This document shows, piece by piece, positions 1 through 24,900 of a stretch of DNA of 40,899 bases (positions are counted from its first letter, which is position 1; the number at the start of each line of letters is the position of its first letter). Origin of the DNA: Catajapyx aquilonaris (taxonomy: Eukaryota); NCBI GenBank assembly GCA_000934665.2, contig JYFJ02003487.1:1-40899 (forward strand), given 5' to 3'. Both the position numbers and the translations under genes were made by a program. The notes beneath the pieces are model-generated. The model saw only the letters and a list, made by a program, of their open reading frames with translations, was not told where the DNA came from and ran no database searches.

Positions 1-94
1 CAAAAACTATTAGCATAGGACCAAACAAAACTCCATGCAAAGTTTGGTGCTTTTGTCCAACTTGTCCCCTTCATCTCGCTAAGAGCCCCCACTA

Positions 95-560
95 TCAGGT
101 GGAAAGCTAAATTTATAATTCTTGAAATAAAAATAAATTGAATCATTTCTCAGATTGCTCACCAGTCTGGTGTAAGGCAGTGGGAGATTATACAAAAAGT
201 ATTGTGCCTCTGGTGCAAGTGCTGCATAATAATAATTGTAGCGAGCCGAACTCTGCACTCGTTCCCTGTCTTGAGCCATTGTAGCGGTTATTAAATTAAT
301 AACCAAGGCATTCTTGTTTGCATAGTTCCGATTTGTCAGCAGCCAATTCTTCCAAGAAAACCCCGCCACCCAGAACAACCACCTCATTTCACTCCCGCAC
401 CTTGTCTCCTCCTCCGAATGTAACAACCATACCAGAGCTTTCTTACTCCATCTTTCTTCCGTTGGTGCTATGGTTCCTACCAGAAAATTCAGTAATTGCT
501 TAAAGATGTTCACCGATACGTTCCTTCTGCCCGTCTCCAATCGTACAAAATATTCTGCCC
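95..560 (-). mobile_element. Non-LTR retrotransposon (LINE) ORF2 3' fragment
   Basis: ORF 79-540 (YNLPLPYTRLVSNLRNDS..FKNYKF) resembles the LINE at 13027-13887 ([24 protein letters not shown]). Confidence 0.6.
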
Positions 561-679
561 AGACAGTCTATGTAGCAGATGCAGCCTGAATCACTTACTT
601 AGCTTCAGAAAACTGCCTGCTGTACCTAACGAGATCACATTGCACATGAAAATTACCAGATAAAACCTGCATTTTAATA

Positions 680-1217
680 CAGCGTCATCGAAAAAGAATG
701 CCCCAATTTAAAAAACCATCTTACTAGATAACCTTTAGACATATCTAAATGATTTAAGTTTTATGCTAGAAATGTCTAAAGTGTTCATGTTAGTTTGTTT
801 CAATATGAGCTTCATTTGTTGCTCAGCAAATTAATGAGACGGCATTTGGTCTCGAGCCAAATGTCTCAATCATATCTCGAGTTACCGTTGTGATACTATC
901 CCTCAGGTGCAGGAGATGATGAGTCTTTACGCCACACACATTGTTCTGAATGATGCACATAACAAGTCGCCCCATCCTTGAAATACTCCTCCCGTAGGAA
1001 AGCTTCATTTGTTCAGCCCCCCCCCCCCCCNCCCCAGACACTGCTTACCGTATTTACATTTTTCGAGCGACAACTGCAGTTCATATAGAAACAAACGCAG
1101 GTGAGATCAAAACTTTAGACATTTCTTAGCATTTCAAAATTTAAATCATTTAGATATGTCGACTAGTTTTCCAGTTATGGGGTTTTAAAATTGGGACATT
1201 CTTTTTCGATGACCCTG
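680..1217 (-). mobile_element. Non-autonomous Tc1/mariner-type element
   Basis: Diverged terminal inverted repeats (TIRs) of about 130 bp (cagcgtcatcgaaaaagaatg / cattctttttcgatgaccctg), TA on both flanks, internal transposase C-terminal relic. Confidence 0.85.
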
Positions 1218-1428
1218 TATGAAAAGATCAAATCATTTGGAAGGTCATACACTCGCTGGGATGTTTGGCATCTTGTGTCTGAAGCCCATTTCCTCCCGAT
1301 AACTAGGCTTCGGATGACTCGGTATGCCACTGCCTAGAGCTATGATGGCCATGAATTCACCTTAGAAGTCTTTCTGAACCTGTAGAAAACATTCTGTGGC
1401 TATCCCAACTGATCAAGACGTGTTTCAG

Positions 1429-1647
1429 GCAAAGCTTTTGAACCTGTCACCGAGGGCGAGCCAGGAGGCTTGTGCGTTCCAACTGTCAGGAAGGATGGCC
1501 AACCTGTCAGCAGGAATCTCCTGGCAGTGTCGGCGGCTTCAGGGAATAATGGTGCCCTCCCTATTCGAAGAATCATCACACGAATGGCGTACTACATGGC
1601 CAGGGCTATGGGAGCAAAAGATGACACGTCTTCCTGTGATCCGAAAG
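1429..1647 (+). CDS. Exon: ADAM10/17-like metalloprotease domain, active-site helix region with degenerate zinc motif
   Basis: tttcag|GC...AAAG|gtagaa. Reads [18 protein letters not shown]...[24 protein letters not shown], which aligns by eye with the ADAM10 pattern GLAWVG..GGIC...ITFAHEVGHNFGSPHD..C. The donor is rather weak. Confidence 0.75.
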
Positions 1648-3877
1648 GTAGAAAGGAACAAAGGGGTTGAGTTTCCCTAGCTCTTTGAAGGTGGTTCACA
1701 TGGGCGTCATTGGGTGCAGTCCTTCATAATGTATCCCTTACCTGACAACCTATGTGCAATGCTGGTGCTACATCTATTTGCACCCACCTCGCCTCTGCGG
1801 AGGTCTTCTTGCAGCTTAGCACCAGTGAAATATTTCCTCTTCATTCCTAAAAACTAAAAACTTCATTCTGAAAAACTCAGTACTAATAAGTGTAATTAAC
1901 GTGACCCAACATGTCTTTCAGATCCTGACTTCTATGGCCATTTTTTGATGCACGGCCCCAATCAGGATGGCAGGGATAAGAATCACTGGCTTTTGTCATC
2001 ATGTAGCAAGTTGCAGATAAAGACCACGTTTATGGATCAAGGAAGCTGTTTTTTAGTTGGCGATACTTCATATTGTGGTAATGGTAAGTGCGATGCATCA
2101 GCAGATTACATGTTATGCGAGAAGTTCTGACTTGGATTGCTGACACCTTGATCGATTCATGCTCACATACAAAGCAGAATAATCCGTCACTTGAAGTGCA
2201 TTGGAAAAACTGTTTATGGGGGCAAAAGGTACCGGTGTATAATTATTGTGTACCGTAAGTGTGGGGGGTGATTTTGTGACAAATCAGATTATTCGAATCC
2301 TGCACCACAATATTATATATTAACTTTATGACTAAAACTGACCCCAGCAGATGGCTGTATATGATCTCTAAGAACCACTGGCACAGATGTGAATAGAGTA
2401 AAGTGAAAGTTATTAAAATTACAGTGTCCACTGCAGGCCGCAGGCCTAGAAAAAAGCGAGCGAAGCGCATGGTTTTCTAGTACGTATTATATTATTAATG
2501 ATCAATTCTAAATAGTTTATTGTTGTAAATATGCCAATTTGTCTAGAAATAACGAGCTTGTCGGGTTACTTTGTTATATTTTCAGTTTGGCATTTTAACC
2601 TTAAGGAAATGAGCATGACAAATATAAATTAATATCTTTGTAATAGATAATAAGTAATCGTTATGATCTGTAGATGAAGGATGAAAGTACAAAACTCAAA
2701 AAGACAGTTGTTGAGAATACATTACACCATTTCTGCTGATATGAAAAACCCCAAAAACTCTCATGAAGTCACCTGCACTTACTGTGTATATGTGCCACAC
2801 TGGAAACATTTTTGGTAGAGCAGGAAAAAAATATATAATAGAAGGGCTCTTCCATAGACAAGTTGCTCTGTGACAGTCTCCTATAGGAGTTAGCAGTTGC
2901 AAAGGACCATTTCACTCAATGCCATACAAGTCAGAGCCTATGGCTTGCTCACATGCTAAATACATGTCTCTTGACAGGGGTGATCGAGCCTGGCGAAGAG
3001 TGTGACTGCGGTACTCACCACGTAACCTTCGACTGTGGTCCACACAACAGCACTTGTTATCCTGCTATGCACAAGGACCAGTGCAGAATCATGTGAGTAG
3101 CTCCAGTGCTCGCAGACAATAATTCCCTTGGTCACATAGTTCACTTATTGATGGTGCGATGGACCAACCTTGTACAACTGCTCACAGTCAACAATTGTCA
3201 ACAATGGCCGTGACATGGCATCAGGGAAAGGTTTTTTCTTTCATGGATCTGGGTTTGGGTCCTTCCAAATACGCCGTACATCCTCGGATTGGCTCTCAGT
3301 GACATTAACCTATTCGGATCCATAAGAAAACCTCTTTGCCGACACCACTTTGAGGACAATGTTGAACAGAAAGCAGTTGTCTGGGGGTGCATGCATCACA
3401 CCACCAAAAAGTGGTTCCTGGAGGGCCTGCAGACGTTGCCATACCCATGACCCCTACGTATGCGGCTCCAGGAGGGTTCTATCGATAATTATCTGTGCCT
3501 ATCTGCCGACCTGCATGGGCCGTGTATTTGTAGCAACAAAAAAACGAAGTGTGAAGACCAGCCCCCTGACACATCCAGCCTATCCCTGCGTTGACAGTAG
3601 TTTAATATAAAAGTCTTCGCCACATGGGGAATTTGGCTCTGGTGAGCCTCCGCAGCTGTCTACTGGGGGGTCGGTTTAGGTTGGCCACCTTCGGAACCAA
3701 CCCAAGCCGTCCTTTCCTCGGAGGGCGTTTGCAGACTAGCATGGGGGTGGCTGGCTGCGGCAGCCGGCTGCAGGGGCGCTCCAGCACCAAACTACGCGCA
3801 TGGCGGAGACTTTTCTATTAAACAGCCGCATGGTATTTCCATCAGGGGACTGGTAAAGACTTTCCAAACACTCTGCA

Positions 3878-3948
<71 letters not shown>

Positions 3949-6900
3949 GTTTATATAGAACGACCAGTACGGCAGGTAATCCTGTAAAATTTTGAACAAT
4001 TGCGCCTTTAATGATAGAAGCATGAATCTTGGCGCACCTGTAGTAGACAACACCCTAATGGACGTTTTTGGATATAGGGCCATCTGAGATTTTTCTGTAA
4101 CTTAATTGGCAGCCATTTTTCAAGCTGGCCACTAGGTGTCATGTAAACGCCGTATTTTTTGTAGCTATTCATGTTCAATCATTTACTTGAGGCCATGTGA
4201 TGACTATTAGAAGTGAAACTTACTGTAGAAGTAAAAATGAAGCATAGTACAGTGAAACCTGTGTATAGCGTAATCGCACGGGACCCAAAAATTTTCAGTT
4301 ATGGACAGGTTTCCGCTACAACCAGATCAAGGACGTTACTATTTTTTTTGCTCACGAGAAAGAGAGGGAAATGGGGAGAGCAAAAATAAGCACCTTACCT
4401 CCATATGGTGCAAAATCATAATTTTGCCTGCTCCATGGGACCATCAGCCCGGACTCTGGCAATATATTGAACCCGTGTCAACCCCTTCCTCTTCCCCGAC
4501 ATAACTGGACTGAACCGTGAACTAAAAGGTACCTACGAGTCACATGACATGAGTCACGTCTTCTTGGCCCATCTATCCTGAAAGCCGATTTTCAAGTTTC
4601 GGAACCAAAAATATTGCCCCTATCCTCATCCTTTATCTTCAAGGCCACAGGCCATAGCAATTCCAGAAATTACTAGACACAAGTGGTCCAAAAAGGGTTA
4701 CTCAGAGGCCACCTGGAATTGCCGATAGTGAACCCTGCTGTGGTTTCTATTTTTGTGACTCGCAGGATATAATGCGAACCTTTTGATTTCCGCTATGAAC
4801 AGGGATTTTCTCTGAAGGGAGCCAAAAATCCTTTCCCTTTCCGCGTTGGGCAGGTTCCGTTACATCCGTCAAAAATACATTGTATGCCCAATGCATATGC
4901 CCGTTACCGGAAAAAATTCCGGAATGGATAGGTTTCCGCTATATCCAGGGTTCGTTATGGGTGGGTTTCACTGTAGTATATGAAACTAATGATTGGTTAT
5001 GTTCAAAATTTAGAGCATAAAACGCCTAGATCATTTTCTCGATCCATTCAAGGGAAGCAATGGAAGCTGTGGTGTTGAGACCATCGTTATTTGGGCCCAG
5101 GCTGGTCATTGCTGGGCCCAAAAAAGAATCCAGAGTATGCTGCATGAGGGCATCTTGCATGGGAGATATAGTGTCAATTGCTCTACCTTTCTGACTAAAT
5201 AGGCGTTTTCTTGCTTCATTAAGATATTATTCATCGATGCTAGTATGATCATAGAGCAAAACTACAGTTCTCTCCAGGGGGTTCATCTTTTCTTCTACAG
5301 CCTGCTTACTAGGCCTGTGAGCTAATCTACACACAAAAATTTAAAAAAATAAATTGCAACATCGTCATATGCATTCCAGGTGTCCCATGCAGTCCTCTTG
5401 CATGCTTTTTGCTCTATCAAAGGACACATTCTCTCACTCAGTCATTGCGCGAAACATCTGTAAGGCATTGCAACGGTCAGCATCCAAAGCGTTATGCCCG
5501 TACTAATGACCGTACTAATAATATGTTAATGAGGCAAGAAATGGCCGAAGTAGTGAGAAAGGTCTAGCAATTGCCCATTGACAATATACCTTCCAGCTTT
5601 TTTGGGCCCAGCAGTAACCATCAGCCTGATGGTATACCTACCAGGCTGGTTACTGCTGGGTCCAAATAATGATGGTCTCAACACCACAGCTCCCATCACC
5701 ACATGATTGGAGGTGGAAGAAGGATGAAGGCGGATATAAAATACACTGTAGTCCCAATTACAGAGGCGTTGCAAACGCTCGATTTTGCTTGCCATGGCAA
5801 AGAAAAAAGAGTGCAAATCTCAGATGGGGGCAGATATGAAAAGTAACAAAAATAGTTTTGAACAGGTAACTGTCAACGTGACCTATGGTGAAAATATCAA
5901 AAAATTAACAAGTTGATTGAGCAACCACTCCTTGGCCATTTCACATCAAATTACCCTCGGAATGACCTAACATAAACGTGTTGTCCATGTGACCTGGATC
6001 CTTTTTTTCCAGGCGCTTGGTGCATAACCTTCTAATTCTTCTCACTTACCACTCTTGCAGCACACCGACAACTTGCAAAAATGACACTGACTGGCCATGC
6101 GTCTTGTGCAATCGTCCAGGGCTTCCAAACTGCCTTGCAAAGGAGAGGCCTTGTGGCATGCATGAGGTCCCCTGTAGGCTCGGGTACGCCTACTGCATAA
6201 ACCAGCCGAACCAACCTAGACCGTGCCATTGCCGCCCGTACGAGAAACCATGCTGTAACCAGTCACAACTAGCTGGTTGCGAATCTAGGCCCTGCCGGTT
6301 CAACGAGCTCCCCTGCACTTATCCTAACTTCTGCGAGGAAGGTGAATACCCATGCATCCGATGCGGAGAGCCTGGTCAAATTAAATGCGATCAAGATTTG
6401 TGCCACAAGACCTGCCCAAAGTGCAGGCTTTGCAATGAAGACGAATCGCCATGCTTGGTGCGAAGACTCTGCCATCCTGAAGAGTATCCTTGTTCACTGA
6501 ATTGCACAAAAGGCGACAAGAAGTGCAATCGCTGCCAGGTTGAGTATCCATGCGTCCGGCTCCCCAGGGCTTGCCTGCCCAACTTCTGGGGTCTACCCTG
6601 CGGAGAGCAACGTTACCAACAGTGTCCAAGTGGGCCACCTGTAGAGGCCTGTAAAAGTGGAGAGATTCCGTGTTTAATGTACTTACCCTGCAAAAGTGAT
6701 GGTGCCAGATACTGTGTGGAGTGTGGAACCCCTGGACGGCCCGAGTGCACGGACTGCACAGAACCATGCAGATTTGATGAATTGCGGTGTGTCTATAACC
6801 CCCGTTCAGCCCCCGAAAAAGATTCTGCAGAGAATTTTTGGCCATGGCCACCACAACCGACAGCTACGGCACGACAGGGACCAGCAGAGATACAGGGACC

Positions 6901-9900
6901 TGCAGTGATGTCACAGGCACTTGCAGTGAGAGAGGCACCTGAAGTGAAGACAAAGGCTCAAAAATGCCTGTCACCTAGCTGCAAGATTAGAATCGGCACC
7001 ACCCCGAGGTGCAAGGGTAGGAATCGACCATGCAACGTGTGTGATATTCCCTTCGATTACCCAAAGTGTATTGAGGTGAAAATTCCCTGCGATGTGGCTG
7101 TGAACGCATTCACCTGCAATAGGGTAAAGCAGTGCAGGGAAGATGAGGAGCCCTGCTGCGACAAGAGTAAGTCCTTATTTTATTCTTGCATGCCTTAAAT
7201 ATAACTGGCCGGTTCCATTTCAATTCTGACAGAGGGTGACCAGTCATGGCCTTAGATTTTTTTGAACAAAAGATATGTGAAACCCATATCCAAGTGAACC
7301 TTTATGGAGCAATCAAATTTACGAGATTAAATCTAGTTATCGAGAAATTAATATTTATTTTAAGGGGTACCTAAATAACCTTCACGGGAAGTGCACTTTT
7401 TCCATTGCTTTCAATGGGTATATTTCCGGAACCGTTCTGAAAACGAATATGAAATTTTAAACTCATGCTTTTGGAATAATGCTCTGTTATGTAATGCATA
7501 CATTTACCTTATTTAATGGTACAGTCACCTTCAAAAAAATCTACAATCTTGCATATTTTTGTCAAAAATGAGCATATTTCGCAATTTATTACGTCGTTAT
7601 GGTACCCTTAACGGTTGTGCTGATTATATTTTGTGATGTACTCGGTCACCCCCTAAAGGTTATTAAATAAAACCTTGGTTAGCCCGCGTGTAGTTGAGAT
7701 ATGTGACGCGAAAATATGGCAACAAGTGAACACATGCATATTTCAAAAATTATGTTCTCAAAAACGCATTTTTTAATATAAAAAAATTTATTTTACCTGG
7801 ACAAACAGGTTATAAAATGAAGTAGTGTCAAAACCCGGTGCATATTTTTTGTAAGGGAGATACTCTTTTTTTTTCAGATGACTACTTTCGTCATTGTGCT
7901 ACAATACAGCACACTGCACACTTTCTCGAAGAAGCCATTTTAAATATTTAATCGTTATTTTTTGTATAACAAAGTAGCATGAGTTCTATTATAAAATTAT
8001 ATCAAAATTCGGCATGCACAATGCCGTAATTTACTGGTACAGTCATCTTCCGAAAAAATCGCCAAATGTGCTTGTTTTGCTGGAAATTCACTTAGTACGC
8101 AATTTATTATGGAGTTATTATTAAGGTTATTGTAGGGACGATAGTCCCTATAGTAAGACCAAACGACCGAAAACAACAATGAAATGTCCCGCTTTTTTGA
8201 CGAAGCATAACTCAAAAACCCTTACAGATAAAGGTTTCACAGTTTGAACATGACACCAGCTCGGCGTGACGGACGATCCTTTTCCTGTCAGGTTATAGCG
8301 AATTCCTTCGCACAACGCCAGAAAAAAATCTTATATCGGTATTCTCTATAATAATGAAGTTCTTCTCTTAGCAACGATGTAACTCTCTATTTAAAAAATT
8401 CAACATTCTCTATTAATAGAATTAGGCCCGTATTCATAATGGAATTCGAACGAGGGGTCGGGGTTGAACCCGGGGTTGAGGCGGAGTTGACCCCGGGTTC
8501 GTATTCATAATGGCCTTGAAACCCCGCGATCCGGGGTTGAGTCGGGCGGGGAGTTGACTCCGGTCCTGGACCAGGGTTCAGTTCTGAACTCGGGGTTGAG
8601 GTCGATTGCAAAAGGCGGAAGGGGTCGAAATTCATGCCGTTCTGAAGCGGCTAGACCTCCGACGCGTGTGTCTGAGGGACCGGGAGAACCCGATGGAGGT
8701 GTACGACGACGCGACGCGTCCCTCCGGCAACTATACCGCCTGCGGAAAGACTGCGTGTTGAACCTGCTCGAAATGATCGCGGCAGACCTCGTTCTTCCTC
8801 TGTGCCATTCATGTAGCAGCTACGTCTGAACTATTACCTCTTCGGCGTCATCGAAAATATTAGCTGCCAATAGCAGCATAGCCTACATGTAATGAATCTG
8901 CTGGAACCACGTGCCACATGCGGCACCAATGCCAATCCGGGAGTCCGCAAAGAAGGCTGCCACTCCCGCGCCACACGCGGGGTAAAACAGGGCACTGTAT
9001 TTTTTCCAGGTCAACCCGACAGGATTCATTACAAGATTGATTACAAGTATGCTGCTATTGGCAGCTAATATTTTCGATGAAGCTGATGTAGCTGCTACAT
9101 GAATGGCGCAAATAACTGCTATTTGTAACTGTTAATCGTCACTTGAACTTGTGACCTGCTTGTGACCATAGAGTAAGGCTTGTGACGCCCTGTAGCTGGT
9201 AGGATACATTAGTATTCTGATGTACAGTACACCTTCTACAATTTTTGTAGGAAAAGAATGCGTCTCGTACCACCCCGCCATGAAGTACAAAAATAATGGT
9301 CACTGTTGCTCCTCACCCAAAATCTTACCTCAACCAGCCCCCTGAGTTAATTATAGCTTATTCGGTACAATAGATGCTGGTCAGCACTTGCTATTTGGTC
9401 CAATAGTCAGCTCATTTACAGGCGCATATTTTACAATATACTGCAGAAGTTGGGTGACAATAATGGCTATGGCCATTATAGTCAGTGGGTGAGGAGCAAC
9501 AGTGGCCACTTTTGATCTCAGACCCATCACTATAGTGATGGGTCTGAGATCAAAAGTGGCCAAGTCCACTGCAGAAATCATGCACTTTAATGTCATTGGG
9601 TATTAATTGCACATTTGCGTATATGTAGCTGACGAGCTTTGCGGCAACGTAATAATTATATGGTCGTACAAGAGGTTAACGTAAACGCGCCCGATTAAAT
9701 CCTTAGTTTTAGCTTAGCAAAGGTGAATTTTTAGTTAGCTTATTAGCTGTTAGAGAAGCTAATTTTTCGGATAGCTGTGCCCACCTCTGTTCTGTTAGTA
9801 AGTTAGGGTGAAATTTTTGTCGTACTACTAGTTACTTCTAACTTATAGCAGTACCAGTGTAGTGCAATACTGCAAATGTACTGCTAAGTTAGCAGTAACT

Positions 9901-12900
9901 CGTAGTACAACGAAAATTCCGCCGTTCGAAATTAAGTAGTAAGTTAGTCACCTGTTATTTTCACTCATTTGCCAAGCACAGGGCCGTTTCGCGACCCGTC
10001 CGCGTGAGAGTGCTAGCATGTACCAAGCACATAAATTTTTAAAAAAGAACTGCAATTATCACAAAAACCTTCCATTCTGTAAAAAAAGGGTAGTAAGACC
10101 TCTATGGCGGATAGAAATTAATTAAACAAGACAGGTATGCGTAAGACCTAGCTTCACTAGATTATTATTAAAGGATATCGTAATGCTACATTACGAAGGG
10201 TATGTGTAAAATTTTTACTAATATGTGAATATGTAAGCAGGGTCTTACTCATGCATTTCTTTATATTAAAATTATAAATATTGGATGAGACGTGTATCTT
10301 GTCAACCAATGCTGCAAGCCTATGAACTTCTGATATCATTACGAATTATAATAATAATATTATTAGTTCTACATACTTATTATATTATTATAAATAAATT
10401 TATATTATCTTGTTATATTATTATGCATGAGTAAGACCCTACTTACATATTCACATATTAGTAAAAATTTTACACATACCCTTCGTAATGTAGCATTACG
10501 ATATCCTTTAATAATAATCTAGTGAAGCTAGGTCTTACGCATACCTGTCTTGTTTAATTAATTTCTATCCGCCATAGAGGTCTTACTACCCTTTTTTTAC
10601 AGAATGGAAGGTTTTTGTGATAATACAAATGAAACCAATTATGTGCGTACAATGTAGTAAAAGGGCATGTTGTAGGGACAAAATAATATCATTAATATCT
10701 GTATTCAAAGAAGAGATACACCTGGTCAAAGTATGGTCATATGAGAAAACATGCCTGAAAGAAACATTTTTTAACTCAAAAAAGGCATTTTTTAATTTTA
10801 TTTCAATTTCATTTGTGTAGATAATGACTCTCTCTTTCAAAAGATATATCACAAACCCGGGGCGTATGCGTAGTAATTGAAATATATATTTTTGAATGTT
10901 GATTCGATTAACTACGCATATGCCCCGCATTTGTAATATATCTCGACCATATAGAGGCGATTCAGGACAATGTGACAAGAGCACTGCCCGCCGTCACAGA
11001 AAGTGATTTCCAGGAAGCATTCCAACAATGGAATAAATAATTAAAGACTGTCTATTGCCAGTAGAGGGAACTACTTTGAAGGGGCCAGTGCTAAAATTGT
11101 TGCAAATTGAACGATAGAGTGTGTATGGAAAAAGTTTTGTCTTTTTTTGAACACCCCGCGTATATGTTTGAAATGTTATTAAATGATATGTGCATTGGGA
11201 GGTGTGGTGACCGAGATGGTCACATCTCGGCTTGCTGAGTGAAAGGTCCCAGGTTCAATCCCCGCCTGGGAATTCATTTTCACCTGCGTCTGGAGGGTCT
11301 CTGACCTGCACCAAGGAGGTGTCTGGCAACCTAACCTCCTGGGGAACAGCACATGACCCGTTTTACAACACAATGTGCCAACATGTGGCAAGAAACCAAC
11401 CATGTTTTGGTATTTTTTGGAAATATTTAATTGGCCCGTCATAAACAAACATGCATCATTTTTTCATTCATTCAAATTGTATAAAATCTTGAAGCGTATG
11501 CTCCAGCACAGTCAGTCGAGATCTGTTTGCTCATCATTGCTGAAATATGTTACTGTTGTGCATACTTCTCAGTGCAATAGTTTGCACAGGTATTGTTTCC
11601 TGCATTACCTTATTAGCTTCAAATTCTTACACAGTTGTTATAATAGAGCTGTTCTCCTAAGTGTGTCTTTCCCGTTGTATTACCAGAAAGCAAGCCATGT
11701 CCCGATGATTGGATACACCAAGGACATCACTGCTATTACTTTTCAAAAGAAAAACGAACTTGGAACGATGCTCGATGGACCTGCCAAGATTTAAATCCTG
11801 GAGCTGAATTGGCCAGTTTCCATTATGAGATTGAAACGAACGTACTGACAAGTAAGTCAATAATTTGCAAGGATATTAAAACGTGAACTTACAAAGTCAC
11901 AAAGGTTTATTGCATTATCCTGTATGGAATATCATTTTGTCCAATATTTATTCTGATGTACTCTCTCGATGTGTCAGAAAACTGTCTTTGTCTGATAGAG
12001 AAGATTCCATATTGCAGCCCTTTGATTTCTGAACATGTGTTTCTGGTGTTCAATACATTCCGTTGAATCGCATATTTCAATTTTCAGAGCATTTGCATGA
12101 TCGCATGTGGATTGGACTCAAATACCTGGGGACGCCAGGCGAATTGGAATGGAGTGATGGTACTCAAGTGGAAGATCGTTATCTCACTTGGGAGGGTAAC
12201 AAGGCACCCGACTCTAATGAAGAGAAGTGCATAGAACTAAAGAAAACTGGCGAAACGGGGGTATTGAAGGACAATAACTGCGACGAAGAATATAACTTTG
12301 CCTGTGAATTAAGAAACATGAGAGGTAAATATTGGTGTTAATAATGAGATTTTCATGTCAGTAGAAATGTTTTACATGGATTGTTTCCATTTTTAGAAGG
12401 ATGTCCGACTGACTGGAAGAGGAGAGGAGGGAGTTGCTACTACTTTTCTACTTTCCCGGCCAAGTGGACAGATGCTAGGAATTATTGCGTGCTAAATAAA
12501 AGTGCGGATTTGGTCAGCTTCGGTGACGAAGACGAGCAGTCTGAACTAGCAAGTAAGTCATTCGTAGACAAAGTATTAAGTATGACTTCAACTTTTATTT
12601 TTTAAATTACTGTAATTAACCTGGACTGTTTTTCAGGGGATATGGTTGAAGCCGTTTGGATAGGCCTTCATTACAATCCTACTGAGGCAGAATGGAGTTG
12701 GACGGACGGAAGTGAAAGTGAATACCGAAGATGGGGTGAAAAGAAGCCCAATGTGGACAGCCAGTACAAGCACTTCTGTACCGAGGCACTTCCCACAAAA
12801 TATTGGAACAACCTTCTTTGCGATTCTACACGTCGCTTTGTCTGCAAATTTGGTACGGCCAAAAAAAAAAAAAAATTGGCAAAATTGGTCATTTTATCAA

Positions 12901-15900
12901 GAAAGCGAAAGCAGCTGTTAACGCCATTTGGCCTTCACTTCTGAGGCTTAAATTACGGGATTTCAAGGTGGCAATGAAAATATTCACAGCCAGAGTAATA
13001 CCATCGCTGACTTACGCATTTCCGGTATGGGGCCGCAATATTTGGATAATTTGGAGATTGCCCAAAATTACTTTGTCAAAAAAAAATTTGCTCTCCCGAA
13101 CAGCACGGCCGGTTACTACCTACGACTTGAGCTTGGTATTGGACATCTTAAACCACAACTGCTGAAAAGAATATGCTCTTATGTTAGGAAGCTCAAACGG
13201 GAGCAAGAGGACACTCTTTTGAGCAGCGCTTTCCGAAGCCTAACCTCCAGCAAATTACCGGTCGGGTGGGCGACACATGTCAACAACAAGTTGGCACTGA
13301 TAGGCACGGCTATTGAGTCAGTAGATACAGTCGACGTTGCTTTGAACCTGATCAACTACAAACAGACCTTGAGGGAGGCAGACTTTGCAGCATTAAGTCT
13401 CTCGCAAAGATATGAACATTATCACCAAACCTTCCAAATGTACCCTGAAATCCGGTGGCCTACATACAATTTGCCATTGCCAATGCAACGCTTTCTAATC
13501 AATTTAAGGCAGGGATCCAACTATCTGGCCCTTGGGAAGCATTCCTTTAAAATAGATGAAGACACTAGTTGTGAGTACTGCAACCTCCAATCCCCCTTCA
13601 CCCTATGGCATTTATTGCGTGAATGCCCACTGTTTTCCGCAGTGACTGGTTTGAATCAGCAATGTTTAGAGCGCTATCCAATTGACCGCTTTCATCTGAG
13701 CTGGGCTGACTTGTCAGCGATGGAAGTCTTTCAGCTGGATCAATTTTTTCATGTATTAGTGTTCTTGCCCCACATTGACCTTAGCATTTGTTTTCTTTCT
13801 TTTTTTTCTTTTTTGATGTGTAAACATGATTATGACGGCCTGTCCCCCCCCTATATTGGCAATTGCCACAGGGGGTACCACAAATAAATAAATAAATAAA
13901 TAAATAATGACCCGGTGATGCCCACCAGGGTGCAGCCAGGGACCAACACTCTGGGACTTGGCGATGGACACCTGGTTCGAGATAGCGTTGCGGGCCACGA
14001 CAAATGGCATCCGTCTCTTGCTGCAGGCCTACGCGGACGACCAGGTGGTACTTATCATGGCCACTTCGATTACGAAAATAGAGAGGGAGTGGTGTGACCT
14101 GGAGCCTCATTTGAAGACGTGGGCTGCAGACATGGAGCTTGCGTATAACACAAGGAAGACCTAGGGACTTTCCTTCCCTTGGCGTAGAGTCCAATCCAGC
14201 AGCTAGGCAACTGGAACCAAACATCACTTTCCTGGGGGAGAAGGTGGAGCTGAAGGAGTCAGTGAGGGTCGTTGGCCTTCGGATGGACCCGGGTTTAACG
14301 TGGAAACCGCATGTCAGATGGGTCCGAGACAAAGTCAAAAAGCTGGCTGCTGGAATCTGGAGGGTGGGTCGCCAGAACTGGGGTATGACCCCCAGTATTA
14401 GACGTCATGTGTTGATGTGGGCCATCCTGCCATGCTAAGCTATGGGTCGGAAGTGTGGGTACGTCGAGCCAGAGGCTACTGGAACACCAGACACCTTCGT
14501 AGTTTTTGCAAATATTTACTTGGCCCGTCATGAACAAAATATGAACCATTTTTTCATTCATTCAAATTGTATAAAAACTCGGAAGTGTCCGTTCCAGCAC
14601 AGTGACAAGATGTTTGCTCATCAGAGCAGAAATACATATTACTGTTGTGCACACTTTTCAGCGCAATAGTTTGCACAGATATTGTTTCCTACCTTATCTT
14701 ATTAGCTGCAAATTTTTCCACAGTTGTGATAATAGAACTCTTCTTGTAAGTGTGTCTTTTCCCGTTGTATTAACAGAGAGCAAGCCATGTCCCGACGATT
14801 GGGAATACTACGGAGATCACTGCTATCGCGTTTATAAAGAAAACCGAACCTGGAACGATGCTCTAAGTACTTGCCGAGGATTAAATCATGGAGCTGACTT
14901 GGCCAGTTTCCACAGTGATATCGAAGCTAACCTAGTGACAAGTAAGTCAATAATTTGCAAATACATTAAAACTTGAATCAACAAAGTCACAAAGGTTTAT
15001 CACATTATCCTGTATGTAAGGAATATGAGTTTGTCCAATATGTATTCTGATGTACACTCATTGAGTCATGAGAAAACTGTCTGTCTATTAGAGAGGATTC
15101 CATATTACGGCTCTTTATTTTTTAAACATGTGTTTCTGGTGTTCAATACATTCCATTGAATTTCATATTTAAATTTTCAGAGCATTTTTATAGAGATATG
15201 TGGATTGGACTCGTTGTTCTGGAGAAGCCAAGGAACTACACATGGAGTGATGGTAGTAAAGTCGTTGAGAGATATCTCGGTTGGGAAAACCCTAAACCCA
15301 GCTCTGCTGAAGATAAGTGCACAGAACTACTAGAGGAAAACGGGAAATTGAACCACAAGAAGTGCAACACTTCATTGAACTTCATCTGTGAATTCGGAAA
15401 CCAGACAGGTAAATATGGGTGTTAATAGTGATATTTTCAGGTCCGTGGAAATGGTTTACATGGATTGGTTCCAGATTAGACTTTTTCGAAGGAAATTTTT
15501 TTATAGAACATCAGTCTGTCTGTCTGTGGACAGGTCTCAGACAGACAGCCGTGCTATAAGACTTTTTTCAAGCCCCCTGGCTGCCCCCACTGTCCCCAAC
15601 CCCCGACCGCCCATTTCCCCCAGAGAAGACAGACAGACAGTGCCATGCTACAATCCTTTTTTTCAATTTTTGTGGTCTGGGTTCACTCTATCCTCCCCTT
15701 CCCCATGGCTACTTCCTTCCCCCACCACCCCCTCCCCCAGATGACCCTTTCCCCCCACCGTGACGGACGTTGGGGACAATAGCAGTAAACATGAAAAAGT
15801 CTACTCTAATCACTCTCACGTGATTTGCCAATCTTGTTTAGGAGAATGTCCGACTGACTGGATGAAGATAGGATCCAGTTGCTACTACTTTTCGACGTTC

Positions 15901-18900
15901 CCGGCCTACTGGACAGCTGCAAGGAATCATTGTGTGCTAAATAAAAGTGCAGATTTGGTCAATAAAAGTGCAGATTTGGTCAGCTTCGGTGAAGAAGATG
16001 AGCAGTCTAAACTAGCAAGTAAGTCACTCTTAGACGAGGAATTAAGTACGACTTCAACCTATAAAAAAATAACTGTAATTAATCTGGACGCTTCTTCAGG
16101 TGATATGGTTGAAGCCATTTGCATGGACATTGAAGCTAGCATAGAGATAAATAAGTGAATAATTTGCAAACATCTTAAAACTTGAACTAACAAAGGTGTA
16201 TTGAATTATCCTGCATGGAATATCATTTTGTCCAATATTTATTGGTGATTATTGGTGCCATTTATTATTGCAAGCAGATCCTGCTGCTACAAAATATTGG
16301 TATTAATCAGTAACATGTTCGGAAAATTAAAAATGCACTGCACCTCGTATTAGGCCTACAACTTAGCAGAATGGGAAATTGCTATTAAAATACAATCCCC
16401 CTCTTGCGTCAATGCCTTTCATTTATTTCAGGGGTTCTCAGCTGATGTCCCGGGGACCACCTTTGGCCCGCTAACTCGTAGCATCCAAAATAATGCATAA
16501 TAAAATTTCGATCATGCAAACTCATACTAAGCTTCGGACATGATTTTATCAATTGTATGGCCCGGTATGGCCAGCGACCCCTAAGAAGTTACGCGTCCCA
16601 GATTCCTAATTAGTAATAATATAATCAGGTAATGGCCGTTGGCTGTAGCTCCCTGTCTCAAGGTAAAAGGAGAATGGTACTGTCAAAGAAAACAAGGAAG
16701 AATCACCTCACCTGAGATGATGTCGCACTCACAGAGAAGGGGACGCATTTTAAAAATTATTCCCAGTTGCAGTGTTAACTTGCAATTACAGTATGCCGTT
16801 CATAGTGTCCGAAGCTCATAATTATTACGATCCACACAATCTGAGTGAAATGCGGCATCATGCATTGACGCAGTGGCAGACGTCATTTCAGCAGGAACGC
16901 ATGGGCAAGAATAGGGTTGCATTGGCCTAGTCCGCAGTTGAAGATGACAAAGAGGCAAGGAAAGGAGAGGAGTTTTGCTCCATTGTTTACCCCCAGCATC
17001 GAGTTGCTAGCGATCAATTATTGCAACAAACGATGGCGGCCATGTTAACCTGTTGGTGATTGTTGATGTGGGTTTAAATCAGTTGCCAGGGTAAACAACA
17101 ATAGGGGTCTTTCCCTGCAGTCCCACCCTCTTCTTGACATTTCGGCCTTGATTTCGGCAGTGCTAAGCAGCCTTTTGTAAACTGCGCATAAACAATGTGG
17201 TGCATTTATTGCCTTTTCCCAGATCGTCCTTATTCATGCCTTGCACTGACACCGTCATTCTGACATGCAACGTGCACCAATAATGGGGAACTAGCCTTGG
17301 TCTGGGATTTGGGATTTTTGTTCATAACTAGCTAGCCCATGTCTGCAACATACATTCCATCACTCTGTTGCATCAATATGACATTACTGGATAAATTACG
17401 GCACATTTAAAAGTGCCTTCAAAATTGGCGGGAAAAACGGAGGAGCCGGGTGGTGCCAATCGAAAGGGTACACTGAAATGCCTGGTTGACTGCGAGATAT
17501 GAGGAATTTGATTTAGAATTTACCGCGGACGCGACGGAAAGCATTCGCAAGGCGGCTGTAGGCCATCGAGGTGGAGAAGGGGGACCTTTATGTGCCTAAT
17601 TCAGGAGACAGATATTTCCGACCTGGTGGCATCACTGCCACGTACAAAGCGGTTTGAGCTGCTTAGAGTAAAAACTCGCCCGTTACCTGGCAACTAAGTA
17701 AACACTTGGACTGCTAAAATGCCCAGCCGTGTCCATTTTACGACCATGCCGGGGCGCGTTCTATAACATCATTTTTGCGTTCATTTCACTTCGCGTGACG
17801 TCAACATTTTCGAGGAAAACAGTGACGTCACCATTTTCCCACGAAAAAACGCCAATATCTCCGCAACTGAAACTGATATCTTAAAACGGAATACCCCAAG
17901 AAAAATTCAAAAATTATGGGCGAATTTATTATGTAGTTTCCAAAATGAAGGCTAGTTCCCCATTATGCCAAAATTCAACAGACGATGCTATGCAAATGCA
18001 GGCGACAAAATCAAGGAACCCGGAATATGCTGCCACCAAGGTCACGCAAGCCTAGTTCAGGGAAAACATAAGGTAGCACACGGACCCGGGTTAAAAGTGT
18101 GGGGGGATAGACGGCCTTGGTCTCACATAGATAAGGCAAAGCGCAAGCATTCACACTGTCTTTGTCTACGTATTAGAGAAGACTCTATATTGCAGTAGTT
18201 TCATTTTTGAACATGTGCTTCTGGTGTTCTATACATTCCGTTGAATTGCATATTTCAATTTTCAGAGCATTTGTATCTGCACATGTGGATTGGGCTCATT
18301 GTTCGGGCTAAGCCAATCAACTACATATGGAGTGATGGCATGCGAGTGGATGAGGATTATCTCGATTGGGAAAACCCTAAACGCAACTCTGGTGACGGGA
18401 AGTGCACAGAACTACGAGAGAAAGGAGAGAAATTGAACCACGAGAAGTGCGACACTGAATTGAAATTTATCTGTGAATTAAAAAACCAGACAGGTAAATA
18501 TGGGTGTTAATAATGTTATTTTCAGGTCCGTGGAAATGGTTTACATGGATTGGTTCCATTTTTAATAGATTGTCTGACTAACTGGACGAAGATAGGATCG
18601 AGTTGCTACTACTTTTCGTTTGACAAGCTCTCGTGGGACAAAGCAAGGCGTCATTGCGTGCTAAATGAAGCTGCGAATTTGGCCAGTTTCAGTTACCCAA
18701 AGGAGCAGTCTGAACTAGCAAGTAAGTCATTCTTAGACGAGGAATTAAGTATGACTTCAACCTATTAAAAAATTACTGTAATTAACCTGGACTTTTTCAG
18801 GTGATATGGTTGAAGCCATTTGCATGGACATAGAAGCTAACAAAGAGATAAATAAGTCGATAGTTTGCAAATATCTGAAAACTTGAACTAACAAAGTCAC

Positions 18901-21900
18901 AAAGGTTTATTGCTTTATCCTGCATGGAATATCATCTGGTCCAATATTTATTCTGATCAGGGATGGAAAAAGAACCAAAGAATCGGTTCTTTTTCCATCC
19001 TTGATTCTGATGTAACTCTCATTGATGTGTCAGAAAACTGTCTTTGTCTATTAGACAATAGTTCAATATTTCAGGACTTTAATTTTCAAACGTGTTTCTG
19101 GTGTTCAATACATTCCGTTGAATTGCGTATTTCAATTTTCAGAGCATTTGCGTGAGCACATGTGGATTGGACTCTCTTCCCTAGGTAGATACAGTTATAC
19201 ATGGAGTGATGGTACTGTAGTGAATAGGGAGTATATCAAGTGGGGGCCAGGTGAGGGCAAAAACTTTGACGAGAAATGCGTTATACTCAAGAGGGGTCCA
19301 CCAGAGGTATTGCAAGACTTTCCCTGCGATGTTCAATTTTACTTTGTCTGCGAAAAAAAAGAGCCAGGTAAATATGGGTGTTAATAATGATATTTTCATG
19401 TCCGTAGGAATGTTTTACATGGATTGGTTCCATTTTTAGTAGGATGTCAGAAGCAGTGGCTGAATGGATCATCCACTTGCTACTACTTTTCGGGTGATAA
19501 GAGAAGTTGGACAGATGCGCAGACGTTTTGCAGGAATGAGAAATTTTGTGATTTGGTCAGTTTCAGTGACGCAGAGGAGCAGGCTTTCCTAGCAGGTAAG
19601 TATTCTGAGACAAAGAATTACGTTAGACTTCAACATTTTAAAAAATTGCTGTAATTAACCTTGACTGTTTTTCAGAGCTAATGAAAGTGGCTACGGATAG
19701 ATGGGCGCCCAGTAAGTCAATAATTTAAAAATATATTAAAACTTGAACTAACAAAGTCACAAAGGTTTATCACATTATCCTGCATGGAATATCAGTTTGT
19801 CCAATATTTATTCTTTTGTAACCTTCATTGATGTGTCAGAATACTGTCCTTGTTTATTCGAGATGATTCCATATTACAGTACTTTAATTTTTGAACATGT
19901 GTTTCTGATGTTCGTTGAATTGCATATTTCAATTTTCAGCTTATACACAAGTGTGGACTGGACTCAATTCCTTGGACATATGGGCATATAGTGATGGTAA
20001 CAAATATGTTAAGGAATTTATCGCTTGGGGTGATCGTCAACCCACCTCTAATGACGATAAGTGCATAGGAGTCACCCTATACAAAACGAGTCAAACAGAG
20101 GCATTGAGAGCCTGGATGTGCATAAGAGAATTGAAATTTATATGTGAATTAAAAGACCAGACAGGTAAATATGGGTGTTAATAATGATATTTTCTGGTCC
20201 TTAGAAAAATGTTTTACATGGATTGGTTCCATTTTTAATAGATTGTCTGACTAACTGGACGAAGATAGGATCGAGTTGCTACTACTTTTCAACTGTCAAG
20301 CGCAAATGGGAAGATGCGGTTGCTTATTGCAGGAACCTGAATAAAAGTGCAGATTTGGTCAGCTTCAGGGAGAAAGGGGTGCTGTCTGAAGTAGCAAGTA
20401 AGTCATACTTGGAGAAAGAATTACGTACGACTTCCAACATAAATAACAAATTACTGCAATTAACCTAGACTCTTTTTCAGGTGATATGGTTGAAGCCATT
20501 TGCATGGACATAGGATCTGACATAGAGATAAATAAGTGAATAATTTGCAAATATATTTAAACTTGAACAAGCGAAGTCACAAAGGTTTATTGCTTTATCC
20601 TAGATGGAATATCAGTTTGTCCAATGTACGCGCATTGATGTGTCAGAAAAATGTCTTTGTATATTAGAGAAGATCCCATAATTATTGCAGTACTTTGATT
20701 TTCGAATCACATATTTCAATTTTCAGAGCATTTGCGTGATAACATGTGGATTGGACTCACTGCCCTGGACAACCCAATCAAATATAATTGGACTGATTCT
20801 ACTCACGTGGAGGAGAGTCATCTCACTTTTGATGGAACTGATCCCAAGTATGATGTAAAGAAGTGCATAGAACTAAGCAATACAGGGAAATTGATCTACA
20901 CTGAATGCAACAATGAATTTAACTTTGCCTGCAAATCAACAAACGGGACTGGTAAATATTGGTGTTGATAATGATATCTTCATGTCCGTAGAAATGTTGT
21001 ACATGGATTGGTTCCATTTTTAGGAGGATGCCCGCCTGACTGGTGGAGTATAGAATCCAGTTGCTACTACTTTTCGACTGTCAAGTGCAATTGGGCTGAT
21101 GCGAAGAAGGATTGCGAGATAAATAAAAGTGCAGCTTTGGTCCATTTCAGTTACCCAAAGGAGCAGTCTGAACTAGCAAGTGAGTCATTCTTAGAATTAA
21201 GTACGACTTCAACATAAATAACAAATTATCGCAATTAACCTGGACTGTTTTTCAGGTGATATGGTTGAAGCCATTTGGATGGGCATAGAATGTAACATAG
21301 AGATAAATAAGTCAATTATTTGCAAATATCTTAAAACTTGAACTAACAAAGTCACAAAGGTTCATTGCATTATCCTGCATGGAATATTATTTGATCCAAT
21401 ATTTATTCTGATGTACTTTCATTGATGTGTCTGAAAACTGTCTTTGTCTATTATAGAAGATTCCATATTGCAGCACTTTAATTTTCATACATGTGTTTCT
21501 GGTGTTCAATACATTCCGTTGAATTTCAAATTTCAATTTTCAGAGCATTTGCATGATCGCATGTGGATTGGTCTCTTTATCCTGGACGAACCAATCAAAT
21601 TTAATTGGACTGATTCTACTCCAGTGGAAGAGAGTTATCTCACTTCTGATGTAACTAATCTCTTGTTTGATAATGAGAAGTGCATAGAGCTCAACATAAT
21701 GGGGAAATTGATCTACACTGAATGCAACAATGAATTCAACGTTGCCTGCAAATTAACAACCATGACTGGTAAATATTGGTGTTGATAACGATATTTTCAT
21801 GTCCGTAGAAATGTTTTACGTGGATTTGTACCATTTTTAGGAGCATGTCCCCCTGGCTGGAAGAGGAGACTGTTCAGTTGCTACTACTTTTCAACTGTCA

Positions 21901-24900
21901 AGCTCAATTGGACAGCTTCGATTAGTTATTGCAGGGGCTTGCAAGAAAGAGCAGATTTGGTCAGTTTCCATGACCAATTGGAGCGGTCATACGTAGCAAG
22001 TAAGTCATTCTTGTACAGAGAATTACGTACGACTTCCACATCAATAAAAAATTGTTGTAATTAACTTGGACTGTTTTTCAGGTGACATGATTGATGATGA
22101 CGTGTGGATAGGCCTTCATTACAATTCTGATGATGATGAGTGGATGTGGACGGACAGAAGTGCAAATGACTACCGCGGATGGGATACAGAGGATCCCCAT
22201 TGTTTGGACACCGACCAGTGTACCAAGATAGTTTTCCAAAAAGACTGGAAGCACCTTCCTTACGGAGGTGAATCCCATCACTTTGTCTGCAAATCCGCTC
22301 TGCGAGGTACGGACATTTTATTTACAAATAATGTATCATCACATCACTGCACTTTTAATGAAGCCAACCCATGGCCCTCTGAATGGATCAGAAATGACCC
22401 GAACTTCTCTCGAGATAAACTGCAGGCTCTTCAGGAATGTGGCAATTTAGACGAATGAGCTATTCTGGTTACAATGGTTGATGAACATGAATACAACTTT
22501 GTTAAAGAAACATGTATTGTGTACAGTAGCACATTCAAAACCTGTGAATAGCTCATCTTTACGATGTGTAGGATCATTTTCCGATTATCTGGGGACACTC
22601 GTGCAGTCATTAGCCCGGATAATTGTGAGGACAGTGTAATTCCAGGGTGGTTAAGATTCCCTGCGATGTGGCTGTGAAAGCTTTCACCTGCACTATGGTA
22701 AGATACACTTACTTCGTACACTTTTCTTCGACTGGCAAGTTTAGGATTGCATAAGACCACTTTATTGCCAGGGGCAAGTCAACGATAGCAGCCTTATGGT
22801 CTACGCTAGTTCAATTGAAAGTCTGTAATCTCTCCACACCTCATTGAAGCTGTTCTCGGCCCAAATTGCTCCAATCGTTTTATACAATGCTCATGTATGG
22901 AGTCTTGATTATTCAATAGAAACAGAACGATTGCAGCTGTTCTTCATCAAGCTATTCCTATCTCTCCCACCTAACACATGTGGCAAACTACGTATTTGTA
23001 CGTTTAGAATCTGGCCGCAGCACTTTCGTTGTCAATGTCTTCAAAATTATGCTTCAATGGCAGATCAGACTAACAAACATGCCATATGACCAGTTGCCAA
23101 AGAGATGTTTCCATTATGCGGTGAAGAATGGATTACTGTACAAAGCTAACTGCTTTTGACAAAGTCGCTTCTCTTTTGTCAAAAGCAGGCAATACATGGG
23201 ACTATAGTGACCGGCAGGCACGCCATCCCCTGCCGGCTTCACGTCAGGGGCAAATGTCCCCTGACTCTCATCGGCCTCATAACCTATCCTGTCCCCTGCT
23301 CTTTTTCTGCTCTTTTTCCCTCCAAAAACCGTCAAGGCCAGAGTCTCCCAACTCTGGCTGGATCTCCACAAGGTCCGTGCCTTGACTATAAAAGCAGCAC
23401 CAAGGCCCGGGCCACTTCACTTCAGCTGCAGCCTTCAACGAGGAACACCGACTCCGAGCTCCACAGCAGCCACGGCCTACGAGCTCAGCAGCAGCAGCGC
23501 ATCGAACAACCGGTCCTTCTCAGGACCAACATAACAAACGGCCCTTTTCAGGGCCAACACGAGCATCCGTAAAGGGTCACCAAATTGGTGACCCCGACGT
23601 GACCCGAACCAGACGACCGGCCGAGTGATGGCTCCTCCACGGACGTCCGCCGCCACTGCACCTGTGAAGATTCCGCCATTCTGGCCAGAAGACCCGCAAC
23701 TGTGGTTCGCCCAGGTTGAGGCACAGTTCGCCGTCCGGGGAATCACAGCGGAGAAGGCCAGGTTCGACCATGTGCTGGCCTCCCTCGCCCCAGAAGTCGC
23801 CACCCAGGTCCGGGACATCATCATGCACCCGCCCAGCACCGAGCAGTACACCGCCCTTAAGGGGGCACTCATCTCCTGCACCACCGTGTCAGAGTCCCAG
23901 TGTCTGCAGCAGCTGCTGCGAGACATGGACCTGGGTGACCAGCGACCGTCGCAGCTGCTGCGTCGTTTTGAGCAGCTGTACGACAGGCAGCTCAATGAGG
24001 AGCCCATCTTCCGGGAGCTTTTCCTGCAGAAGCTGCCGCAGCAGGTGCGGCTCGTCCTGGCCGCGACACCAGAACAGTCACTCAACCAGTTGGCGGCCAT
24101 GGCCGACAAGCTCACAGATGCTGTCCAACTGCCGTCGGCATCATCTGCCGCAGCCGTCGCCATCCCTGCTGCAGAGGGGCAGCCTCCGGCCGCCGACACT
24201 TCCGGCCTCGAAGAGCTGCGCTCCAATGTAGCAGCGTTGACCGCGGCGGTCCAGAAGCTGGCAGCCGGACACCGTCGGCCTACCAGAATCCGCCCTGCGG
24301 CACGTCCGAAGCCTTCGCCAGCCCCCGTCCGTGCTGCCGCCCAACAAGCAGGTGACCAGACCATATGCTGGTACCACGCAGAATTTGCGGAGAACGCCCG
24401 CATCTGCCGGCAGCCCTGCTCATTCATGATGGGAAACGACAACTAGAGTTGGCGTCGGCAGCATCCAACTCATCACCCAGCCCTTGCAGCCGCCTCTTCA
24501 TCCGCGACCGTCGTACCAAATTTCACTTCCTGATCGACACGGGCGCTGCCCTGAGCATCCTTCCTGCTTCCTCTTCCGACCTGCCTAACCTTCAGCCCCT
24601 GGCGTTAGAAGCAGCGAACCAGAGCACAATTCATTCAGACCTATGGGCAGCGCCTTCTCACCTGTTCCCTCGGACTACCCCGTACCTTCCAATGGCTCTT
24701 TACAATAGCCAGCATACCCCTGCCCATCATCGGTGCCGACTTCCTGCAGAATTTCAACCTGGCTGTTGATCTCCGCGCCAGGAAGCTCGTCGACCTCGAC
24801 AAGCATGTATCGGTCATCGGCTGTCTCCGCCGAACCTCCGCCATCAACCTCAAGCAGAAGCTGGATTCGCCTGACCCGTATGCTGCATTACTGCGCCAGT

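Follow-up and report, generated by a model that had tools for sequence, protein, structure and literature searches.

A diverged ADAM10-type protease-domain fragment without the zinc-binding residues: a putative pseudoprotease module in a repeat-rich genomic window

Introduction

ADAM10 and ADAM17 are the main proteases that shed Notch, cadherins, TNF, and EGFR ligands. In the metzincin mechanism, three histidines hold the zinc ion and a glutamate acts as the general base. To our knowledge, ADAM10 and ADAM17 are treated as uniformly active, and all of the dead ADAMs that have been described belong to the classical clades. Among the latter, ADAM2, ADAM22, and ADAM23 are thought to act by binding. 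According to the excerpted text of one survey, the classical ADAMs have lost the zinc motif repeatedly, as exemplified by Xenopus ADAM15 with HQxGH (PMC3055250). The same excerpts mention two ADAM10 paralogues, Xenopus ADAM10-like and Drosophila Kul, and do not describe them as inactive (PMC3055250). A full-text literature search, as judged from titles and abstracts, returned no account of an ADAM10/17-type protein that is catalytically dead.

Here we analysed a stretch of 40,899 nucleotides (hereafter the window), in which a sequence-only reading had predicted a pseudoprotease of the ADAM10/17 branch. We describe the exon model, the erased zinc site, and the sequences downstream of it, and weigh whether the locus is a living gene or a decaying copy.

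Results

A three-exon model matches ADAM10

The window is eukaryotic genomic DNA that contains introns, transposons, and microsatellites. Three exons were modelled in its first part (Table 1). All of their boundaries are canonical AG/GT and their phases are compatible, exons 1 and 2 being symmetric. Exon 1 is preceded by a pyrimidine-rich acceptor and ends at the donor AAG/gt, exon 2 ends at a strong donor (G/gtaagt), and exon 3 ends at /gtgagt; when this last donor is left unused, an in-frame TGA follows immediately. The spliced product, made by joining exons 1, 2, and 3 by their coordinates in a script, has 164 residues. Its match to ADAM10 begins at the GGxC loop, takes in the zinc-site helix and the Met-turn, and stops at the first CDCG of the disintegrin domain. 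What precedes this part in ADAM10, namely the signal peptide, the prodomain, and the N-terminal half of the protease domain, would lie 5' of the window start, exon 1 beginning 1428 bases in.

Table 1. Positions of the predicted exons and of associated features in the window
Feature	Position	Strand	Description
Foldback element	672-1225	.	almost wholly inverted repeats; in the intron upstream of exon 1
Exon 1 (predicted)	1429-1647	+	219 nt, phase 1-1; GGxC loop, edge-strand region, former zinc-site helix
HExxHxxGxxHD remnant	1590-1625	+	reads Y-Y-x-x-R-x-x-G-x-x-D-D
Exon 2 (predicted)	1922-2083	+	162 nt, phase 1-1; Met-turn to the protease domain end, with the CGN(G) junction
Exon 3 (predicted)	2978-3092	+	115 nt, phase 1-2; beginning of the disintegrin domain: ExGEECDCG, then about 25 residues
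Candidate next exon	6013-7166 (alternative acceptor 6061)	+	phase 2-1, about 370-385 residues, orphan cysteine-rich

The earlier statement that the frame stays open was found to be true for all three exons. Across them 165 codons are open, and the chance of meeting no stop is 9e-5 for random codons of the same composition. Exon 1 is read in the frame of the ORF at 1413-1670, and the peptide that had been quoted for 1560-1647 is identical to the translation in this frame; exon 1 is also free of stops in a second frame (1378-1680).

Reference sequences were obtained by scanning metagenome contigs with a degenerate ADAM10/17 zinc-motif pattern, which returned 120 loci, mostly bacterial zinc proteases. 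The context around the motif was of the ADAM10/17 type in three of them (L082, L034, and L021), and a few classical ADAM exons, such as L003, were also recovered. The ORF of L021 stops just past the motif and was uninformative. The ORF of L082 (207 residues) matched 1599 proteins at E ≤ 0.001, and the best 120 of these 1599, which are arthropod ADAM10, Kuzbanian, and Kul proteins, served as the reference set. When one reference protein (P0012) was compared with PDB sequences, it matched ADAM10 at E 5e-143 and ADAM17 at E 4e-58; the former value indicates that the reference set is real ADAM10. An ADAM10 profile was then built from the 23 shortest arthropod ADAM10 proteins of the set.

The spliced product matched this 23-protein profile with 38.9 bits and an E-value of 1.6e-14 (Z = 1, one target), which is somewhat optimistic because the exon model was picked with the alignment in mind. 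Individual arthropod ADAM10, Kuzbanian, and Kul proteins were matched at about 40 bits by phmmer, and the identity to the ADAM10 consensus was about 31% (48 of 156 aligned residues; MAFFT). A scan that is independent of the exon model was made with all unspliced ORFs of at least 15 amino acids on both strands (n = 1699). Against the ADAM10 profile, the ORF of exon 3 ranked first (E 0.0014, profile 509-536) and that of exon 2 ranked second (E 0.04, profile 456-514), and the two matches are adjacent and collinear both in the genome and in the profile. Exon 2 was also collinear with the ADAM10-like ORF of L082 in BLASTP (E 2e-4).

The single exons failed in library searches because they are too short and too diverged. 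Exons 1 and 2, searched singly, gave no match in Pfam at E up to 1, the Reprolysin families included. Exon 3 reached 13.2 bits and E 0.16 against Pfam Disintegrin, the cut-off of which is 35.1, and returned nothing relevant among PDB sequences. Among PDB sequences, exon 2 was closest to the ADAM17 catalytic domain (2i47) over the stretch between the Met-turn and CGN, with an E-value (1.1) that is not significant. Such weak scores per exon would be expected if the resemblance to ADAM10 came from chance or from a cysteine-rich composition. This explanation is effectively refuted by the E-value of the spliced product and by the finding that the two top-ranking ORFs among 1699 are neighbours in collinear order, and we assign it a negligible probability. 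Composition is not the cause of the match, since long ORFs of the window that are much more cysteine-rich miss the ADAM10 profile; the first of these, which holds the candidate next exon, showed no similarity to the 120 ADAM10 proteins either (best E 2.3). The homology to an ADAM10-type metalloprotease domain that the sequence-only reading had claimed was thereby recovered. The profile alignment by which it was to be checked gave a divided outcome: negative for the single exons in Pfam, and positive for the spliced product with our home-made profile.

The zinc site is erased and the cysteine scaffold is retained

The same register of the zinc motif was given by phmmer against single ADAM10 proteins, by the profile, by MAFFT addition to the 120 ADAM10 segments, and by both an ADAM10-type and a classical-ADAM ORF. 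In this register the first His is replaced by Tyr, the Glu by Tyr, the second His by Arg, and the third His by Asp, with the Gly and the last Asp unchanged; the codons start at 1590 (Y), 1593 (Y), 1602 (R), 1611 (G), 1620 (D), and 1623 (D). The single-protein, profile, and MAFFT alignments all confirmed that the three His and the catalytic Glu are lost, as had been read from the letters. The earlier register, which set IT on IT, was one residue off the computed one; correcting it leaves the lost residues unchanged. HExxHxxGxxH is intact in all 120 reference ADAM10 proteins (the best 120 of 1599). Since the zinc ligands and the Glu are gone, the domain cannot be a canonical protease under the metzincin mechanism. 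By analogy with characterized metzincins, the fragment is presumably non-proteolytic, with neither canonical zinc binding nor water activation.

Outside the motif, much of the scaffold could be traced. The Met-turn Met that is invariant in the 120 ADAM10 proteins (best 120 of 1599) has its counterpart in the codon at 1948-1950, and the Cys-x-Pro 3' of the motif is retained. Of the 11 columns that are invariant Cys in these 120 proteins, 10 are Cys in the fragment, and the sole loss is at the first position of the CC pair in the disintegrin domain. The other invariant columns were kept in only 33 of 115 cases (29%), and the difference is significant (Fisher one-sided p 8.1e-5; binomial 3e-5), although the figure for Cys is partly favoured by aligner scoring. 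The retention of the Gly, the Asp, the Met-turn, and the cysteines, which had been noted from the sequence alone, therefore stands, with the one cysteine excepted. Taken at the level of sequence, it is a solid conclusion that the window carries a diverged ADAM10-type protease-domain fragment devoid of the zinc ligands and the catalytic Glu.

Placement of exon 1

The weak point of the model is the placement of exon 1, which is suggested by exon order and splice phase, by the score against shuffled sequences, and by the shared register. Exon 1 alone gave no match in Pfam, in PDB sequences, in BLASTP against the ADAM10-like ORF at the right place, or in the ADAM10 profile scan. A word-indexed protein search with exon 1 produced 32 candidates, none of which matched at E up to 1, and the same type of search with the exon-3 ORF produced no candidate sharing three words. 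The only ESM Atlas returns for exon 1, bacterial sheath proteins with low recognition (1709), were rejected as noise.

The contribution of exon 1 to the score of the spliced product is 1.7 bits over the 37.2 bits of exons 2 and 3. When exon 1 was shuffled with its composition preserved, the scores averaged 35.0 bits (sd 0.71, maximum 40.7); the real 38.9 bits beat 997 of 1000 shuffles, and 3 of 1000 reached the real value. The first motif position lies 39 residues from the Cys of GGxC, as compared with 38 in ADAM10. The corresponding exon of L034, an ADAM10-like genomic contig, starts within about one codon of the exon 1 start and ends about 4 residues off. The 3' introns are both of phase 1, whereas the 5' intron is of phase 1 here and of phase 2 in L034. 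At the 5' end of exon 1, the MAFFT alignment implies a deletion of 8 residues in a conserved core-strand segment just upstream of GGxC. Alternatively, this strand may be encoded in an upstream exon beyond the window, in which case the loop before GGxC would be longer.

The lack of detectable homology of exon 1 alone, together with the start of the window only 1428 bases before it, leaves room for an active protease. In such a gene the segment 1429-1647 would be a mutually exclusive or unused exon, and an exon with an intact zinc motif would lie upstream of the window. However, no ADAM10-profile match was found in positions 1-1428, and no HExxH occurs on the gene strand of the whole 40.9-kb window outside one retrotransposon reverse transcriptase; the second HExxH string of the window is in a minus-strand transposon ORF. 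An alternative exon with HExxHxxGxxH, on which the sequence-only reading had said its proposal could founder, is accordingly absent from the gene strand of the window. Moreover, exon 2 requires a phase-1 partner that ends just past Cys-x-Pro, as exon 1 provides, and exon 1 is in phase, has limits near those of the equivalent exon of L034, and outscores nearly all of its shuffles. We therefore regard an active protease with a separate catalytic exon as very unlikely.

Sequences downstream of the disintegrin stub

The ADAM10 profile, searched against ORFs at E < 1, detected none of the rest of the ADAM10 disintegrin domain, the cysteine-rich domain, or the membrane and tail exons in the remaining 37 kb. 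The disintegrin domain is incomplete, only profile positions 509-536 (about 28 residues) being matched. With the disintegrin remainder, the cysteine-rich domain, and the membrane anchor missing downstream, the architecture is not simply that of a dead ADAM10.

The next long ORF after exon 3 is 5993-7198 (+), which has no start Met near its 5' end. The candidate exon within it (Table 1) has two good acceptors (6013 and 6061), both of which require an incoming phase 2, and its donor at 7166 leaves phase 1. With either acceptor, the summed length of exon 3 and the candidate exon is a multiple of three. Complementary phases of this kind arise about once in three by chance and are thus modest evidence for a splice; it is from these phases that we infer a possible junction of exon 3 with the cysteine-rich exon at 6013 or 6061. 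A search of the cysteine-rich exon against 1.84e9 representative proteins gave 0 matches at E up to 0.001, and the exon gave neither a Pfam family nor a usable ESM Atlas match.

The ORF at 5993-7198 (+), of 401 codons, is paralogous to another cysteine-rich ORF of the window at 34116-36161 (+), of 681 codons (best E 4e-13). Both contain recurring units of the type Cys-x2-Cys...Pro-Gly-x-Pro-x-Cys and match no Pfam family, and the pair appears to be a family of orphan extracellular proteins. Exons for C-type lectin domains, two per domain, form an array over 11647-22455 and 29259-30279 (+), with Pfam Lectin_C E-values down to 1e-11. The short ORF at 22629-22751 (+), just before a retrotransposon, repeats by eye the C-terminal end of the first cysteine-rich exon (around 7080-7130), which hints at a trace of segmental duplication of a unit of cysteine-rich and lectin exons.

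The first lectin exon (11687-11851) is symmetric with phase 1-1 and is thus phase-compatible with the cysteine-rich exon upstream. The lectin array could form a multi-lectin gene of its own or belong to a single large mosaic gene. In a tentative reading of this arrangement, which we hold to be doubtful as a whole, the locus would be a living mosaic gene specific to this lineage, with the zinc-less ADAM10-type domain fused to the orphan cysteine-rich repeats and possibly, via phase-1 exons, to the C-type lectin array.

Repeats in the window

Transposon remnants occur in and around the introns of the ADAM-like fragment. The single N of the window, at 1031, is inside a poly-C run of the foldback element and probably marks a gap in the assembly. 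In the intron 3' of exon 3, positions 3887-3950 are a long (ATT)n microsatellite. An LTR-type retrotransposon with reverse transcriptase, RNase H, and integrase domains was found at about 23100-27950 (+), and near-identical ORF text at 23114-23572 and 27299-27928 suggests that these are its two LTRs. The ORFs at 79-567 (-) and 12952-13887 (+) are related (E 3e-8) and have no Pfam family; both are probably relics of a single repeat or transposon family. The ORFs at 30488-30809 (-) carry a motif that we take to be that of mariner/Tc1-type DDE transposases, and the adjoining ORF at 30742-31299 has no Pfam match.

A living gene or a decaying copy

The fragment can also be read as a decaying or partial copy of an ADAM10-like paralogue. 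Such an unprocessed pseudogene or exon relic would never have been complete, or would have lost its downstream domains, and would make no working protein. The absence of the exons for the ADAM10 disintegrin remainder, cysteine-rich, and membrane parts is in line with this view, as are the possible loss of 8 residues of a core strand, the one disintegrin Cys that is gone, and the in-frame TGA directly after exon 3. The transposon remnants in a repeat-rich region point in the same direction, and so do the failure to recognise exon 1 alone and the lack of relatives of exon 1 or exon 3 in the word-indexed protein search. However, at an identity of about 31%, neutral decay should have brought stops, frameshifts, and loss of cysteines. 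Instead, the 165 codons remain open, the splice sites are intact with matching phases, and cysteines are retained far more often than the other invariant positions. The recent death of a paralogue whose site was already dead would look alike, yet it would imply a long prior life without zinc. A decaying copy is thus possible, and we judge it rather unlikely.

The combination of open codons, intact splice signals, and selective retention of Cys in a sequence this far from the ADAM10 consensus suggests that the gene is alive. We lean, with slightly better than even confidence, towards the view that the three exons belong to a live, zinc-less, ADAM10-like pseudoprotease module.

Discussion

A plausible course of events for a live pseudoprotease module can be outlined. 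An intron-containing gene of the ADAM10 type (ADAM10/17-like) would have been duplicated and would have given rise to a lineage-specific and strongly diverged paralogue, of which the present fragment would be the 3' part. The substitution of Tyr, Tyr, Arg, and Asp for His, Glu, His, and His would have led to the loss of proteolysis. The metzincin scaffold would have been preserved, namely the disulfide cysteines, the motif Gly and Asp, the Met-turn, and the CGNG/EECDCG junction. The domain would most likely have survived within a secreted mosaic protein, as a module with a structural or ligand-binding role. Past the disintegrin stub, the reading frame would most plausibly enter the orphan cysteine-rich exon (6013/6061-7166), which would replace the disintegrin, cysteine-rich, and membrane parts of ADAM10. 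A role in binding is suggested by analogy with the dead classical ADAMs.

If a zinc-less ADAM10-type domain is indeed under structural constraint here, the ADAM10/17 lineage too can be put to use as a binding scaffold that does not cut, and the locus would offer a naturally occurring form of the ADAM10 cleft that resembles a substrate trap. If, in addition, the mosaic reading holds, a dead sheddase scaffold would here have become the basis of a new protein for extracellular recognition, and the ADAM10/17 group would have its first non-catalytic member. If the locus is only a decaying copy, it would be no more than what gene duplication commonly leaves behind in a genome rich in repeats.

The closest known counterparts of the fragment are the arthropod ADAM10, Kuzbanian, and Kul proteins, which gave the best sequence match. 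The fragment shares with them the order of GGxC, helix position, Cys-x-Pro, Met-turn, Cys pattern, CGNG, and ExGEECDCG. It resembles arthropod ADAM10 also in coming from an intron-containing gene, the limits of exon 1 lying near those in the ADAM10-like contig L034. It differs in that all four catalytic residues are replaced, whereas they are kept in 120 of 120 reference proteins (the best of 1599). It differs further in its downstream part, in which neither the cysteine-rich domain (PF21299 region) nor a membrane exon was detectable and an orphan cysteine-rich continuation is likely.

ADAM17/TACE, the sister of ADAM10, is the single best PDB match of exon 2 (2i47), at an E-value that is not significant. 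The fragment scored 38.3 bits against the ADAM10-type ORF of L082 and 23.0 bits against the classical-ADAM ORF of L003, the latter being the one informative classical comparator. The comparison of scores favours a clade affinity on the ADAM10/17 side. The assignment to the ADAM10/17 branch made in the sequence-only reading gained partial support from the ADAM10-type score and none of significance from the match of exon 2 to ADAM17.

The non-catalytic classical ADAMs (vertebrate ADAM2, 7, 11, 22, 23, 29, and 32, and Xenopus ADAM15) share with the fragment an ADAM protease domain that lacks the zinc motif. They belong, however, to the classical clades and possess full disintegrin, cysteine-rich, EGF, and membrane parts, whereas the fragment has no such parts downstream. 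The truncation pattern of ADAMDEC1 (decysin) would be comparable if exon 3 were terminal or led into unrelated sequence. ADAMDEC1 retains an altered but functional zinc site, and it is a classical-clade vertebrate protein, unlike the ADAM10-type fragment. We have filed the fragment, from its sequence, outside the catalytic M12B family, the zinc motif of which it fails, and apart from complete ADAM10; in its presumed way of working it would be akin to a non-catalytic ADAM.
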